Source: Candidatus Hermodarchaeota archaeon (GTDB taxonomy: Archaea; Asgardarchaeota; Hermodarchaeia; Hermodarchaeales; Hermodarchaeaceae). From it: a DNA stretch of 11,794 nucleotides. Positions 2,922 through 11,792 of this stretch are shown in pieces. Each line of letters opens with the position of its first letter. The stretch's first letter is position 1. The DNA lies in the NCBI GenBank assembly GCA_016839365.1, contig JAEOUH010000059.1, forward strand, positions 1 through 11,794. The letters run 5' to 3'. The notes beneath the pieces are model-generated. The model worked only from the letters and a program-made list of their open reading frames with translations, was not told the DNA's origin and did no database searches. The position numbers and the translations under genes were made by a program.

Positions 2922-4214
2922 TTATGAATGGGGTTTTTCCTGTTCTGTTGTCGTTTGTTCAGAATCCTGACGGCTGCGCCATGTTTGAACTTGGTAGAAT
3001 ATTTCGAGGCCCAGGGGAATTGCAGCCACTAACACCATTAGGATCGTAGCAATGATAACTATTTGGTCAAGGGAGAAGGGGAAAGGCGGAATCGGTGGCG
3101 GCTGGTATCCAATGGCAGGAATAATGTAGTCTGTCATAATGGATGCAAAGCTTGCCTGCTCATACCAGGCTGTGAATACAACTACAAGATTGTGTTCAGG
3201 AACGACATTAATCTGCTGCCCATTGTAACCAATTGCCAGATAGGAGTTAATCGGTAAATCGAGCCACCACTGATAGCCATAGCCAATGGTGTCTGTGTCA
3301 TTATATGGTGTTGCCAGATTTCGAGTTGAGTTTTCAACCCATTCGGCGGGTATCAATTGGTTGCCATCCCAGGCGCCATTATTCAGGTATAGGAACCCAA
3401 ACTTCGCCATATCGCGTGGCGTCAAATGTAAATTCGAACCTCCAGCCACGACTTCCTGCGGATCTGTTTCCCACTGATAATCTGAAATTCCCAAGGGAGT
3501 AAAGAGGTGGTTATCGGCATATGAGAGCGTGGTTGTGCCCACTGTTTGGTTGATGATCATGGATAGGAGGTGGGAGGTTCCAGAATTGTAATCCCATACT
3601 GTTCCCGGTTCATAGCGCATGGGCTGATCCAACACGTACTGCACCCAATCTGGGCTATTCACCAGGTAGGTATAGCTACTAGTCGGGCCATAAGGCCATT
3701 CATCCCACGCCAGACCGGAAGTCATGGTTAGCACCTGTTCCAAGGTGATGGCCTCCTTCTCAACTGTCAGGTTAGCAATGGTTCGGCCAGGGAAGAAACT
3801 CAACAGTGTATCATTTACTCCTGAAATGTATCCCTCGGCGATGGCTATGCCAATCAACGAGGAGGTCACGCTCTTTGTGCATGAATAAATATTCACGTAA
3901 TCATCGGGGCCATAGGATGGATCATAGTAGGATTCCCACACAATGTAACCGTTATGGATAATCAGAACCGACCGGATCAGGTGTCCCCACGATAATTGCT
4001 GAAAGTACCTTTCCATTGCCTGCAACTGCACCGTACTCATCCCTTGAGCTTCAGGACTTGTCGAACGCCACCCATCGGTTGGCCAATAATCAGGCAACGC
4101 CAGCACCTGACCACTCTCATTACAATACTTCCACAAGGTGGGGGTGACGGATATGAAAGCGATCACTAGAAGTGTTACGAGCCTGTGCATTCTTCGTGGG
4201 CGCACCTTGACCAA
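2922..4214 (-). CDS. Secreted/membrane-anchored serine hydrolase, beta-lactamase class C/AmpC-like family (peptidase/amidase/esterase)
   Basis: SxxK (SCTKS), WDYNS, LTPRDMAKFG, YGYQWW and GYNGQ motifs. N-terminal hydrophobic signal, Pro-rich linker (QPPPIPPFPF) and C-terminal TM helix. True start may be the ATG at 4190. Confidence 0.88.
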   Translation of the reverse strand: MVKVRPRRMHRLVTLLVIAFISVTPTLWKYCNESGQVLALPDYWPTDGWRSTSPEAQGMSTVQLQAMERYFQQLSWGHLIRSVLIIHNGYIVWESYYDPSYGPDDYVNIYSCTKSVTSSLIGIAIAEGYISGVNDTLLSFFPGRTIANLTVEKEAITLEQVLTMTSGLAWDEWPYGPTSSYTYLVNSPDWVQYVLDQPMRYEPGTVWDYNSGTSHLLSMIINQTVGTTTLSYADNHLFTPLGISDYQWETDPQEVVAGGSNLHLTPRDMAKFGFLYLNNGAWDGNQLIPAEWVENSTRNLATPYNDTDTIGYGYQWWLDLPINSYLAIGYNGQQINVVPEHNLVVVFTAWYEQASFASIMTDYIIPAIGYQPPPIPPFPFSLDQIVIIATILMVLVAAIPLGLEIFYQVQTWRSRQDSEQTTTEQEKPHS

Positions 4215-4335: not shown

Positions 4336-4416
4336 CTCTCGCTGTTTGATAATAATATTCTCTAAAACCGATATATTTATATCATAGTAATAGATAGTAT
4401 TCTCAACCCGTAAGAT
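4336..4416. promoter_or_regulatory. Array of four phased operator-like sites (4336, 4358, 4379, 4400) overlapping a TATA box (TTTATAT, 4376-4382)
   Basis: CTCTCG-N5-TGATAA, TTCTCT-N5-CGATAT, ATATCA-N5-ATAGAT and TTCTCA-N5-TAAGAT, spaced 22/21/21 bp. Same core as the 2180 palindrome. Confidence 0.55.
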
Positions 4417-4440
4417 TATCGGGACACGTGGTGGCAATAA

Positions 4441-4578
4441 ATGTCAAAGAATAAAATCCGCTTTACTCGAATCGGGGTCGGTGAACGAGCCGCCCTTGGG
4501 TGTCACAATCCACACCCAACGCCGAACTTCCAGCGGGCATACAAAATCATGACCTCCCGCCGGGGTTCGAAATGGTAG
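4441..4578 (+). CDS. Small protein sORF1, 45 aa: MSKNKIRFTRIGVGERAALGCHNPHPTPNFQRAYKIMTSRRGSKW
   Basis: ATG 6 nt after GTGGTGG SD (4428-4434), ~60 nt downstream of a TATA box. Shares C-x-N-P with sORF3. Translated by hand. Confidence 0.65.
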   Translation: MSKNKIRFTRIGVGERAALGCHNPHPTPNFQRAYKIMTSRRGSKW

Positions 4579-4614
4579 AAGTCGAAAATATGAACTGAAA
4601 AGTGGTGGTAAAAA

Positions 4615-4698
4615 ATGGAAAATAAAAAACAAAATCTGCAAATGAATGGTTCCAATAAGGATACCTTCCTCTACACCCTCCTCTTTACTCGAAGGTAA
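4615..4698 (+). CDS. Small protein sORF2, 27 aa: MENKKQNLQMNGSNKDTFLYTLLFTRR
   Basis: Identical GTGGTGG SD (4602-4608) with the same 6-nt spacer as sORF1. C-terminal TLLFTRR matches SLLFQRR of sORF3. Confidence 0.55.
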   Translation: MENKKQNLQMNGSNKDTFLYTLLFTRR

Positions 4699-4764
4699 AA
4701 AAATACAGGATGATCACAATTGAGCTGGCTAGGGTGTGAGCTCTTAGGATGATGTCACGTACTC

Positions 4765-4884
4765 GGGTCTTCCGGAACAACTCTTTCACTCAAATCCGTT
4801 GTCTACCCAGTAGGTCTCCAAGCCCAGTAAATGCTGGTAGCCAGTCTCCATCTAACCTCTTGGCCAGCATTCTCCGGAAGACCC
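4765..4884 (+). ncRNA. Putative structured RNA module 1 (120 nt, multi-branch)
   Basis: 12-bp closing stem GGGTCTTCCGGA/TCCGGAAGACCC. Inner stems ACAAC/GTTGT (4777-4802), CTAC/GTAG (4803-4813) and AATGCTGG/CCAGCATT (4830-4871). Followed by a U-rich tract. Confidence 0.55.
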
Positions 4885-4907
4885 ATTTTTTCCCATTTCT
4901 TCTTCTC
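4885..4907 (+). terminator. U/pyrimidine-rich tract after RNA module 1
   Basis: ATTTTTTCCCATTTCTTCTTCTC immediately 3' of the closing stem. Oligo-U tracts terminate archaeal transcription. Confidence 0.45.
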
Positions 4908-5005
4908 GATTCTATACTAAACTCTCAAGAAGAGACTAATGAAGATTACCAATTAAAACCCGTTTACACACCTGCTTGCAGAAAATTATTGTGTAAGCTG
5001 GGTAC

Positions 5006-5122
5006 GGATGCAAAGGCCCACTCGCTTTTATTGGTTATCCCTTCCATTCATCATGACACAACCCATACCACCACGAATCGTTGTCTCGCCTTACCATAGG
5101 CTTTGAGTGGGTTTTTGCATCC
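5006..5122 (+). ncRNA. Putative structured RNA module 2 (117 nt, multi-branch)
   Basis: 18-bp closing stem GGATGCAAAGGCCCACTC/GAGTGGGTTTTTGCATCC is fully paired on + using two G-U wobbles. Inner stems ACAAC/GTTGT (5058-5084) and GCCT/AGGC (5088-5101). Confidence 0.55.
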
Positions 5123-5163
5123 CATACGTTCGCTCCCTGTGCTGTTGTCCTGTTTTGAGAAAT

Positions 5164-5180
5164 GGGAAAGTCATTTAAAC
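5164..5180 (+). promoter_or_regulatory. Putative BRE+TATA promoter for sORF3 (GGGAAAG..TTTAAAC)
   Basis: The same GGGAAAG BRE-like heptamer occurs at 5534-5540 before the DUF362 gene. A degenerate operator TTGTCC-N5-TGAGAA lies just upstream (5145-5161). Confidence 0.45.
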
Positions 5181-5294
5181 TGGTGTCATACTTAACAGTG
5201 TTAACTCCTTAGCGATTCTAGTGCCCAGTCTATCCTGAAACCAAATCACTGATATTCCAAGCAAACCAAACATGAACCGTAAGGGGTGATTATA

Positions 5295-5441
5295 ATGGTC
5301 CGATATGAACTCAATAGATGTAAAGTTCCCGTCTCTGAGGACGAGCGAATCAAAGAACCGAAAGGGCTCGCTGAATGCCGTAATCCCAAGGCACTTCGTA
5401 AATGGCCCATGGAAGAATCACTGCTCTTTCAGCGACGTTAA
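5295..5441 (+). CDS. Small protein sORF3, 48 aa: MVRYELNRCKVPVSEDERIKEPKGLAECRNPKALRKWPMEESLLFQRR
   Basis: Canonical archaeal SD GGGGTGAT (5283-5290), a candidate promoter of its own and a downstream terminator. Shares motifs with sORF1 and sORF2. Confidence 0.7.
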   Translation: MVRYELNRCKVPVSEDERIKEPKGLAECRNPKALRKWPMEESLLFQRR

Positions 5442-5464: not shown

Positions 5465-5507
5465 TGGGGATCAACCACGTCAAGTGGTTTGCCCCCCACT
5501 TCTTTTT
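5465..5507 (+). terminator. Hairpin + U-tract terminator after sORF3
   Basis: GGGG..AACCAC-gtcaa-GTGGTT..CCCC stem followed by CTTCTTTTT. Confidence 0.6.
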
Positions 5508-5533
5508 CTATTCCGTTTCCTGCGTTGTCGAAA

Positions 5534-5582
5534 GGGAAAGGTTTTTATCACAACATGAGACTATGTTCTCACAAGATTAGAA
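5534..5582 (+). promoter_or_regulatory. DUF362 gene promoter (BRE GGGAAAG, TATA TTTTTATC) overlapped by tandem operators TTATCA-N5-TGAGAC (5545-5561) and TTCTCA-N5-TTAGAA (5566-5582)
   Basis: Two near-perfect copies of the 2180 palindrome, 21 bp apart. The first overlaps the TATA box. Confidence 0.65.
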
Positions 5583-5629: not shown

Positions 5630-6832
5630 TTGACATCAGAAGTGTATTTTGGATCGATCCAACAAGGGCGGGACGCCGAATTCGCCTCCCTTGGAGCAAA
5701 ACTCGGCAAACTCCTTGAACATCTCGATTTCTCTACCATCGAGAAAAATGACAAGGTTGCCATTAAGATGCACCTTGGATTCTCCGATGGCTATCAAACT
5801 GTGCCCGTGTTTTTTGTTCGACGCATCGTTAAAGCTGTCAAAGAAACTGGTGGCTGGCCCTTTGTCACCGACAATCCCACCTCCATCTACAACGCCGTCG
5901 ACCGCGGTTACACCCAAGAAACCTGCGGATGCCCCCTCATCCCCGTAGCTGGTGTCAAAGACGGTTACACCAAACCAGTCAAAGTGGACTTTAACAAGGT
6001 CAAAGAACTCGATATGGGCGGCGTCCTCCACGACGCTGATGTATTGATTGACCTCACCCACGCCAAAGGCCACGCCAACTGTGGCTACGGCGGCGCTATC
6101 AAAAACATCGCCCTCGGTGGTTACTCGGGCCCCTCACGCTGGAATAAAATCCATGGGATCGAAAACGTCTACCCCTGGTGGGACGCGAAGAAAGCCTCCC
6201 CCGAACATGCCCAGAAACTAGTCGAAAGCTGCCCCTACAGCGCGCTCCGCTATGACAAGGAGAAACACCAACTCAATATCGCCCGCTTTCAATGCCACTA
6301 TGGCAACTGTACCGAATGCATCAAAGCCGACAAAGACGTTGGAGCCCTCAACCTCCAACCCGAACAATTCGAAGCCTTCCAAGAATTCATGGCCATTGCC
6401 GCCCAAAAAGTCCTCGACACCTTCGACGACAATAAACGCTTCTTCATCAACGTGGCCCTTCAGATCACTGCCCATTGCGATTGCGTGGGCCTTCCTCAGC
6501 CGGTGATTGTCCCGGAGATAGGGATTTTGGCGAGTCGTGATATTGTGGCGGTGGAGCAGGCAACCTTGGATTTAATCAAAGAGAAAGGTCTTATTGAGAG
6601 TGAGATTCCGCCATACTTCAAGCACATCAAACTGGATTCAGGCGTTGATTTTTCGCATCCGTTCGCTCGGTTGTGGGGACCATACAAGAATCCGTATTTG
6701 GTGACAAAACATGCGGAGAAGTTAGGGATGGGTCAACGAGAGTATACCCTGGTTGAGGTGCTTTCGCCGAAGAAGACGATGAAGATGAAACCTCCTAAAC
6801 ACGTGTTTGAACGTGCTCCGTCTTTCTACTAA
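5630..6832 (+). CDS. DUF362-family Fe-S protein with ferredoxin-like insertion
   Basis: TTG start with SD GGTGA (5620-5624). SEVYF, KVAIKMHLG, PFVTD, THAKGH..GYGGAIKNIALG, HCDC and GILASRDIVAVEQATLDLI are typical of this family. Confidence 0.85.
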   Translation: MTSEVYFGSIQQGRDAEFASLGAKLGKLLEHLDFSTIEKNDKVAIKMHLGFSDGYQTVPVFFVRRIVKAVKETGGWPFVTDNPTSIYNAVDRGYTQETCGCPLIPVAGVKDGYTKPVKVDFNKVKELDMGGVLHDADVLIDLTHAKGHANCGYGGAIKNIALGGYSGPSRWNKIHGIENVYPWWDAKKASPEHAQKLVESCPYSALRYDKEKHQLNIARFQCHYGNCTECIKADKDVGALNLQPEQFEAFQEFMAIAAQKVLDTFDDNKRFFINVALQITAHCDCVGLPQPVIVPEIGILASRDIVAVEQATLDLIKEKGLIESEIPPYFKHIKLDSGVDFSHPFARLWGPYKNPYLVTKHAEKLGMGQREYTLVEVLSPKKTMKMKPPKHVFERAPSFY

Positions 6833-10139: not shown

Positions 10140-11792
10140 TTAATTTTTGGTCGTATCAGCACTTGCTATTTCCGATTCATCTTCTGCATCGGGGGTTAAA
10201 GATGGATCTTGGCGATAACGCCACAATACCAACCCAAGGGTAATCAACCAAATGGGAAGGACAATGAGTTGCAATAAGGGTGCAAGGAAGGAAACGATTA
10301 CCAGGGTGACGGCGGAGCCAGCAATGAAGCCCACTGCTATAACTTGGCCTTTTTTAGCAAACCACTCTTTTCCGAATTTTCGATTTGTATAGAGCCGCAG
10401 GAAACCTCCGATAGAAAAGGGAATAAAGTAAGAGGGTGGGAGAAACATGGCCAACGCAACACCCAGCGTGGAAATGGGAAACGCTACAGCAAGTAAGCCA
10501 ACAACGACGCCAGCGAACACGAAGACAATGATATTGAATCCTGCCGCAAGAGCGTTGAGGGCAAAGATCGATACAATAGCAAATCCCTGAAGGACTCCAA
10601 CTGCAGGAAATACTTCCGTTGGAAATCCAATCAGATACCACGCTGCTAACACGAAAACAACACTCGTGATTGTTCCTGGAATGATTTTTAGCAGCTGAGC
10701 AATGAGAATGGACCGGCGTGGTGTTTCAGTCATTGCTCCAATTTTGAGATTTCCAAGAGTATCTGTTGTCGTGAAGGGGTTGATAGCCGGATAGGCGAGA
10801 AAGGGGATGTAGCCTTCCAACCCGATTACTGCCAGGGGGATTTCATAGAACGCCAGCCGCTGGACACCCATACCGATACCTGCTTCGCCAACGAATTTGA
10901 CGAGAACAAAGGTATCAATCAAAGCAATAGGTAACAGTAAGATCAAGGCGATGATAACAGAGGCCCATATCGGTAACGGTGAGAAGACGTTGAGAATAAT
11001 AATGATGAACACGAAAATGATGATGATGGACAAGTAGGCTAACCCGAGCCGACGATTATGGGCTAATCCAAGGAAGTAGGTTTTTGCATATGTACCGAAA
11101 CCGACGGTTCCACCTTCTTGCTCGTCCTCATCTTGTTGTGTTTTTGTGTTGGCTGAATTATTCCTTTTCTGTAATTTCGCAATAACGAATACGACAATCC
11201 CACTCAGAAGCATGATTCCGAGGGCGGGTGCCAGCATGTATTCGAAAAGCAGGTTGAAGTACATGTCCATGCCTGTGAATCCTGGTGTCACGACTCCGAA
11301 GTTCACTAAAATTGGGGAAATCACCAAGTACGTGATAATCCCAGCGAACAGCATCGTAATCGAAACCTTGGGGTCGATGATGTATGAGATAGCCATGAGG
11401 CTAATATTCAACATGAATCCTAACGCAAAGCCTGGAAGCATCAAGGGTGTAAAGTCCCAGCTAAGTGTAGTGAACCCAAAGGGCATGACCAAGACATTGA
11501 TGAAATACTGAATAACGGTGATGAAGATCCCGATGCCCAGCCAACGGAACATGAAGCGACTTTGTTGACCCGTTTCCATACAAGTGTTAATTGTTACTCC
11601 ACTTGCCTGATAGAAAGGAAACTTGGTCTGTTTGCGGGACTGTACATAATCGGTAACCGCTAAGGCTGCAATGAATCCTAGTATTGTACTAAGCCAGACG
11701 AAACCAAGATGAAACAAGATTGGTGGGATCCAGCTTGGATCGAAGGGGCTTCCGTAGAGCAGTATATCCTTGGGAGGAACCAACCACCAGGG
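10140..11792 (-). CDS. OPT-family (oligopeptide/YSL-like) transporter, 5'-truncated by window edge
   Basis: Many TM helices. NLKIGAMTETPRRSILIAQLL resembles the OPT DLKxG..TP..Q motif, and GVALAMFLPP...IGG and GFIAG match OPT C-terminal motifs. Frame is open to the window end. Confidence 0.75.
   Translation of the reverse strand, partial: PWWLVPPKDILLYGSPFDPSWIPPILFHLGFVWLSTILGFIAALAVTDYVQSRKQTKFPFYQASGVTINTCMETGQQSRFMFRWLGIGIFITVIQYFINVLVMPFGFTTLSWDFTPLMLPGFALGFMLNISLMAISYIIDPKVSITMLFAGIITYLVISPILVNFGVVTPGFTGMDMYFNLLFEYMLAPALGIMLLSGIVVFVIAKLQKRNNSANTKTQQDEDEQEGGTVGFGTYAKTYFLGLAHNRRLGLAYLSIIIIFVFIIIILNVFSPLPIWASVIIALILLLPIALIDTFVLVKFVGEAGIGMGVQRLAFYEIPLAVIGLEGYIPFLAYPAINPFTTTDTLGNLKIGAMTETPRRSILIAQLLKIIPGTITSVVFVLAAWYLIGFPTEVFPAVGVLQGFAIVSIFALNALAAGFNIIVFVFAGVVVGLLAVAFPISTLGVALAMFLPPSYFIPFSIGGFLRLYTNRKFGKEWFAKKGQVIAVGFIAGSAVTLVIVSFLAPLLQLIVLPIWLITLGLVLWRYRQDPSLTPDAEDESEIASADTTKN

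Follow-up and report, generated by a model that had tools for sequence, protein, structure and literature searches.

A Hermodarchaeia-restricted family of small basic proteins and two associated RNA families, with a possible role as stress effectors

Introduction

SRA, RMF and the alpha/beta SASPs are small basic stress proteins of 45–70 amino acids, which are lineage-restricted and are made from small transcripts of their own; the SASPs, in addition, come as several paralogs. The peptides described here are like these proteins in size, charge and range and unlike them in sequence, as no match to the family is seen. A comparable likeness is offered by eL40, which is of similar size and charge and has a short G-A/C-K/R-N-P turn, but the family does not have its four-Cys zinc knuckle.

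The archaeal hibernation factors HibA/AHA are two-domain HPF-CBS proteins (PMC13324472, PMC13728122), larger than the family peptides. In Methanosarcina, spRNA/asRNA pairs consist of stress-linked small proteins encoded on small RNAs and of cis-antisense RNAs, and one of the proteins, sP24, is a membrane protein (10.1101/2025.10.28.685009). The likeness to the present case lies in archaeal small proteins with RNA-level control, and the difference is that the Hermodarchaeia RNA modules lie on the strand of the genes themselves, with peptides that have no membrane segment.

The closest layout is found in the type I toxin-antitoxin mRNAs. In aapA3 and hok, long-distance pairing between the 5′ and 3′ parts of the mRNA allows a far-downstream anti-Shine-Dalgarno (anti-SD) stretch to occlude the SD or the start codon (PMC6733600), and small type I toxins commonly have a transmembrane helix (PMC8309996). 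Such mRNAs (aapA/IsoA, hok/Sok) share with the locus described here a protein of under 60 amino acids, several chromosomal copies, and a long structured 3′ region whose anti-SD stretch could reach back to the start. They differ from it in that the Hermodarchaeia peptides are archaeal, vertically inherited, and have no transmembrane helix and no demonstrated antisense gene, with the anti-SD found at one locus only. The layout may work like that of type I toxin mRNAs without membership in the class, an analogy that is credible rather than probable; the family is not filed with the class because its peptides have no transmembrane helix and no antisense gene was demonstrated. The literature search found no description of small proteins or structured regulatory RNAs from Hermodarchaeia.

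The sORF cluster and its signals

The window, which is the whole stretch of DNA analysed here, covers 11,794 nucleotides of a Candidatus Hermodarchaeota archaeon (contig JAEOUH010000059.1; the genome is labelled G000). The gap between a beta-lactamase-like gene (2922–4214, minus strand), divergent relative to the cluster, and a gene of the Fe-S type (Pfam DUF362, 5630–6832) hosts three SD-led open reading frames. The first-pass annotation had described three plus-strand sORFs here, each with an SD, and all three are found where it placed them. The features of the gap, all on the plus strand, are the following.

4364–4405, plus strand: putative promoter of sORF1/sORF2, with a BRE-TATA (TTTATA at 4376–4381) and an operator-like box at 4392–4405.
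4407–4434, plus strand: sORF1 leader, with a hairpin at 4407–4423 and the SD GTGGTGG at 4428–4434, read from sequence and kept in orthologs.
4441–4578, plus strand: sORF1, a basic 45-aa peptide that belongs to the core of the family (ER..GCxNP..SRR with a GSKW tail).
4615–4698, plus strand: sORF2, 27 aa, similar to the C-terminal helix of the family and ending in RR-stop; SD at 4602–4609.
4765–4900, plus strand: RNA module 1, a 120-nt structure with the closing helix GGGUCUUCC/GGAAGACCC followed by a U-tract; z -5.3.
5006–5122, plus strand: RNA module 2, with a 17-bp closing stem, a CU-rich loop of ~80 nt and an anti-SD stretch at 5066–5075; z -5.8.
5159–5204, plus strand: putative sORF3 promoter, with a BRE, a TATA at 5174–5179 and the palindrome TTAAC-N3-GTTAA at 5192–5204.
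5295–5441, plus strand: sORF3 (ATG start), a divergent paralog of 48 aa in which two Cys are invariant; SD at 5283–5289.
5465–5510, plus strand: end of the sORF3 unit, a hairpin with a U-tract (z -3.2), the hairpin being kept in orthologs.

The SDs that lead the three ORFs are of the GGTGG/GGGGTGA type, and a GTG at 5286 falls inside the SD of sORF3. The leader hairpin of sORF1 shows a compensatory variant in one ortholog (L008). A single RNA-library contig of 173 nt matches 4435–4607 exactly (n=1), which is a weak hint of transcription only, because DNA can be present in such a library. The RNA libraries were available as contigs with a depth of about 3, and the parts that they leave uncovered prove nothing.

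Between the two modules (4890–5005), an SD and a start codon are kept in several relatives. The ORF that begins there is ~45 aa long, poorly conserved, and runs through module 2 in the relatives, whereas in the window it meets a stop after 5 codons. Elsewhere in the window, an Eco57I/TaqI-type DNA methyltransferase (484–2139) and an OPT-family transporter (10140–11783) are encoded, both without a link to the sORF cluster in the relatives examined.

Coding selection and the extent of the family

The earlier proposal of selection at the protein level is borne out by the orthologs. The dN/dS ratio (Nei-Gojobori) is 0.15 for sORF1, 0.35 for sORF2 and 0.19 for sORF3, and 0.13–0.15 in three further paralog groups, so that the six ortholog groups span 0.13–0.35. 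Most changes fall at third codon positions. In the other reading frames, pN/pS is about 0.9–2.9, except for the mirror frame, which has its third positions in common with the coding frame. Orthologs of sORF3 are present in 11 of the 14 other genomes of the genus, with sORF1 and sORF2 syntenic upstream, and at least 10 genomes have sORF2 at this location and of this length. The terminal codons of sORF2, CGA AGG, are nearly fixed, AGG being the rarest Arg codon. In three genomes, a single ORF of 48 aa stands in place of the sORF1 and sORF2 pair, and in the second genus a sORF2-like ORF lies upstream of a sORF1-like one. By this comparison of orthologs, sORF1, sORF2 and sORF3 are real genes, and the cluster is syntenic across the Hermodarchaeia relatives.

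The first-pass annotation had also proposed an unannotated paralogous family, and the family turned out to be larger than claimed: three more paralogs occur in this genome (one of the C85 type and two of the C5 type in tandem), and at least one match is found in nearly every Hermodarchaeia genome. Some orthologs do have entries at NCBI and JGI, as hypothetical proteins. Iterative searches returned about 50 distinct sORF1-type peptides, in which E, R, N and P are invariant and G, S and R nearly so. The family follows the pattern ER-x4/5-G[CA]xNP-x15-hydrophobic-[ST]RR, and its peptides are basic and 38–57 aa long. The sORF1-type profile matches 18 of the 19 family genomes and 0 of the 381 other Asgard genomes searched, with up to 7 matches per genome. 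A profile search of 1.84 billion representatives returned just 20 short members and two long repetitive matches; no relatives were found in phage records or IMG/VR. Genomes have several paralogs, which are passed on in synteny. The family is lineage-restricted to Hermodarchaeia and was not previously described. Its tree, built on 49 columns, is poorly resolved.

In 38 of the 47 sORF1-type and in 7 of the 12 sORF3-type sequences, the first R of RR stands 17 residues after the N of the NP turn. It had been stated that sORF1 carries one motif only; its RR stands, however, 17 residues from N, as in sORF3, and is followed by the GSKW tail. In profile comparison with the sORF1 family, sORF3 reaches an E of 6e-4, and none of 100 column shuffles scores as high, which supports sORF3 as a divergent paralog of sORF1 in the same N-to-RR register. 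The link of sORF2 is weaker (E 3e-3, 0/100 shuffles); it resembles the last helix of the family only, and its homology to sORF1 is weakly indicated by these profiles.

The two motifs on which the family was originally drawn proved to be special cases. In all six frames of the 2.2-Mb genome, the ending LLF.RR-stop is found 3 times, twice in this cluster, against 0–1 in shuffles, but the exact motif is not kept: sORF2 orthologs end in LILARR, LVFVRR or LASRR, and some sORF3 orthologs in LLSRR or LRRPGG. LLFxRR is just one variant of hydrophobic-[ST]RR. In C-x-N-P, it is the NP turn that is kept, while the Cys is optional, as paralogs with GAKNP, GARNP and GVRNP show, and the number of Cys per peptide ranges from 0 to 2; C[HR]NP is itself common, with 47 matches in the genome. 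The C-terminal end is RR or RH in 42 of the 66 sequences with a scored dibasic end, and RR ends are found in 8 of 1137 long ORFs. In the GSKW subfamily (19 sequences) the RR is buried and the free RR end lost. A divergent subfamily (L164, L166, L167) has GCRTNP, with a one-residue insertion, and a single R at the end.

Peptide properties and identity searches

The net charge of the family peptides is +5 to +12 and their median pI is 11.5, sORF3 being just mildly basic. No membrane segment was found in them (best 17-residue Kyte-Doolittle mean ≤0.65), nor a signal-like N-terminus with a basic and then a hydrophobic part, and the sole hydrophobic run consists of 5–7 residues at the C-terminus. 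The earlier suggestion of signal peptides is not supported by such a composition. AlphaFold predicts a helix-loop-helix at low confidence (pLDDT 65 for sORF1 and 53), and the structural comparison of the sORF1 model at pLDDT 65 gives a best Z of 2.7. Searches of Pfam, PHROG, PDB sequences, ESM Atlas, Foldseek and VIA-align returned no usable match, and since the models are weak, the absence of a structural match does not show a new fold.

Three identities were considered and rejected. The match to eL40 covers 7 aligned columns with a probability of 3%, without the four-Cys zinc knuckle, and the genome has its own eL40. For eS30, 85 of 100 shuffles score as high, and the genome's own eS30 is located on C15. 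For HU/IHF, where the resemblance was to the RNP arm tip, the PDB E is above 1, 23 of 100 shuffles score as high, and the peptides are too short for the dimerisation body. The only HU/IHF match in the 19 family genomes (L117, G016:C477) is a fragment resembling IHF-beta; its contig is very short, and it is probably contamination.

Clustering of the neighbours of 58 members found no modifying enzyme, protease, exporter or transporter common to the paralog groups.

RNA modules

Module 1 starts 63–67 nt 3′ of the sORF2 stop and is kept in 15 genomes (covariance model). Its closing helix, GGGUCUUCC/GGAAGACCC, is also located 3′ of the C5-type paralogs, and in most cassettes the distance from RR-stop to the closing helix is 52–71 nt. 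The post-stop spacer of sORF2 can pair with the interior of module 1 (p 0.024). The inner motifs of module 1, within another closing stem, were found by the covariance model at the 3′ end of a beta-lactamase-like paralog as well. A module 1 type is absent from sORF3, the C85 type and several genus-2 members.

Module 2 is found in 13 genomes, and the G-U pairs favour the plus strand. Its stem shows co-variation, with 7 pairs changed on both sides, a number reached in 0 of 500 shuffles. In Rfam 15, modules 1 and 2 have no match at E up to 5, and five related loci have none up to 1. Both modules appear to be RNA families without an earlier description.

Other 3′ RNAs were observed at further loci. 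A module-1-like RNA with a closing stem of another kind follows the stop of a beta-lactamase-like gene by 6–14 nt (G000:C17:28948-29141; L152, L153, L156–L161). The ATCCGTTGTCC motif of this RNA is complementary to GGAC.CGGA at the start of its own gene in most species, and is kept also where that gene start has drifted. In L154 and L155 (about 1430–1700), the beta-lactamase-like gene is internally deleted, with its first and last codons and the 3′ RNA intact. The genus-2 members L048, L050 and L051 have different 3′ RNAs that still contain the module 1 motif GTAGGTCCA, and in L046 the GTAGGTCCA hairpin reads like a tRNA T-loop. The end of the C85 paralog (G000:C85:33180-33285, minus strand) carries two hairpins genus-wide, one of which has a near-perfect 17-bp stem and a tetraloop.

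Pairing between module 2 and the start regions

The loop of module 2 can form 8–12 bp with the sORF1 start region, and this pairing covers the SD in 10 of 11 species. Cognate module 2/sORF1 combinations pair better than non-cognate ones across species (p 0.019 and 0.008). In this genome, the start regions of sORF1, 2 and 3 are in the top 1–2% of 2370 for pairing with the loop, and across species no such preference was found for the starts of sORF2 and sORF3 (p 0.26 and 0.14). The pairing with sORF1 is suggestive only, because the species are related and the CACC-rich loop pairs with many SDs. In nested folding, the accessibility of the SD is little changed in most species. A 3′ fold-back onto the own start was not found in five other groups (C5a, C5b, C85, sORF3, genus-2; p 0.45–0.88). 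The 3′ arm of module 2 pairs no better with the codons for GCxNP than with synonymous shuffles of them, and the two do not co-vary (p 0.79). No conserved separate antisense promoter was found, apart from the symmetric TATA of sORF3. A pattern search of the assembly returned no rRNA.

Promoters and operators

A TATA, an SD and a 3′ structure are present at nearly every family locus. Most members have a small transcript of their own with a folded RNA at its end, an arrangement that suggests tightly controlled regulators. The sORF1/sORF2 promoter is near-invariant in 11–13 orthologs, and its box resembles the palindrome TGAGA-N6-TCTCA upstream of DUF362; genome-wide enrichment of the operator-like box was not found. 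At sORF3, the arms of TTAAC-N3-GTTAA are invariant in 10 orthologs. Perfect sites of this form number 9 in the genome, where 2.6 would be expected; arms at other spacings are not in excess. Of the 9 sites, 7 are in promoter-like positions: besides sORF3, they precede ferritin/isochorismatase, 4Fe-4S, TusA, PALP/radical SAM, fasciclin and HTH genes (sites in G000 at C37:43371, C37:46743, C42:36058, C64:2246, C90:7662 and C24:41443). As ferritin, TusA, PALP and Fe-S genes are among these, we infer that sORF3 belongs to an iron, sulfur or redox regulon. The palindrome resembles the streptococcal AdcR box, in which the spacer is 2 nt.

Upstream of the C5-type paralogs (L059, L055, L060, L057, L049), another palindrome, TTTGCAC-N7-GTGCAAA, accompanies a non-canonical TATA region. 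Genes of Lrp/AsnC-like regulators are frequent neighbours of these paralogs. In the window, an ArsR/wHTH gene (2259–2903) is syntenic with the sORF cluster in 9 loci, and its upstream region (2170–2190) contains a TTCTCA half-site like those before sORF1 and DUF362. This gene is a candidate local regulator.

Arrest peptides had been among the roles first proposed. One mark of leader peptides, conserved C-terminal residues before the stop, is present in the family as the RR/RH ends. The members have no fixed position ahead of a regulated co-directional gene: at C5 the downstream gene is convergent, and DUF362 is served by a separate promoter at about 5542–5571, behind the hairpin and U-tract. 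A classical arrest or leader role is therefore unlikely: the gene that follows differs among the paralogs, is convergent, or has a promoter of its own.

Proposed role and alternatives

The preferred reading, to which we give a probability of about 40%, is that the family peptides are stress effectors of the cytosol that bind nucleic acid or the ribosome and are themselves controlled at the RNA level. It builds on the comparison of genomes, which shows selection on the coding sequences, paralogous members, a basic charge, a restricted range of lineages, and conserved promoters and RNA stems. The invariant ER / GxxNP turn and the basic helix at the C-terminus would contact a polyanionic partner, for which RNA or the ribosome is the most likely candidate and DNA a possible one; a basic composition alone is no proof of such binding. 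Made available under particular stresses, the peptides would serve as brakes or protectors, and they would be controlled at two levels. At the first level, different operators would serve different paralogs, sORF3 being placed in a regulon of the iron/sulfur/redox type. At the second level, in sORF1/2, the downstream RNA loop could cover the ribosome-binding site.

Part of the same evidence can be read otherwise. If the peptides were growth-arresting toxins and the 3′ modules silencing fold-back or antisense elements, a type I toxin-antitoxin-like system would account for the size of under 60 aa, the several chromosomal copies, the narrow range, and the long structured 3′ regions with an anti-SD stretch far downstream. 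Such a system is unlikely, given peptides without a transmembrane helix, an anti-SD link at one locus only, no separate conserved antisense promoter found, the steady vertical inheritance of the family, and module-1-like RNAs that also end a beta-lactamase-like gene. In another reading, the RNA is the main product, a dual-function sRNA or cis switch, and translation of the RR-stop ORF, perhaps through termination pausing, sets the folding or release of the module. The spacing of RR-stop 52–71 nt upstream of the closing helix, the pairing of the post-stop spacer with the module 1 interior, the nearly fixed terminal codons of sORF2 with the rarest Arg codon, and inner motifs kept even behind an unrelated gene all fit it. 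It is unlikely nonetheless: selection is strong on the whole peptide and not on its end alone, sORF3, the C85 type and several genus-2 members do without such a module, and the C5 pair in this genome has no regulated co-directional downstream gene.

The conserved peptide ends may instead serve a protein target, such as a protease, a regulator or an Fe-S/metal enzyme, to which the peptides would dock as inhibitors via the hydrophobic helix and the free RR, with the sORF3 Cys binding metal or sensing redox. The excess of RR/RH ends over the long ORFs, the two invariant Cys of sORF3 next to a redox-type operator, and the retention of this helix alone by sORF2 are consistent with docking; it is improbable, as the RR is buried in the GSKW subfamily, no partner gene travels with the family, and the RNA modules are left unexplained. 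For a candidate role as a C-terminal Arg degron, also among the roles first proposed, most members have the free RR end, which is extended in the GSKW subfamily. RiPP precursors, which the first-pass annotation had listed, or exported signalling peptides would suit short, paralogous products with one Cys in many members, and a secreted beta-lactamase-like hydrolase and the OPT transporter are encoded in the window. As the neighbours have no modifying enzyme in common and no conserved protease or exporter stands beside any paralog group, the middle and end are conserved without a hypervariable core, and the N-terminus is not signal-like, this explanation is very improbable.

Meaning for Hermodarchaeia

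The limit of the finding is its range: the peptides occur in one family of one class, and say little about eukaryote origins unless their target is a universal machine such as the ribosome. The proposed translational control by SD-masking RNA and small basic effectors is testable without a cultured Asgard strain, because the family is conserved, multi-copy and synthesisable, with defined promoters, operator and modules. A more far-reaching version, distinctly unlikely at present, is a native archaeal peptide-plus-RNA circuit, in which the basic microproteins would inhibit or protect the ribosome, or bind their own 3′ closing helix, the end-paired anti-SD modules would switch translation, and the paralogs would answer different stresses. 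If true, such a circuit would give an Asgard archaeon a growth-arrest system gated by small RNA and made up of undescribed protein and RNA families.
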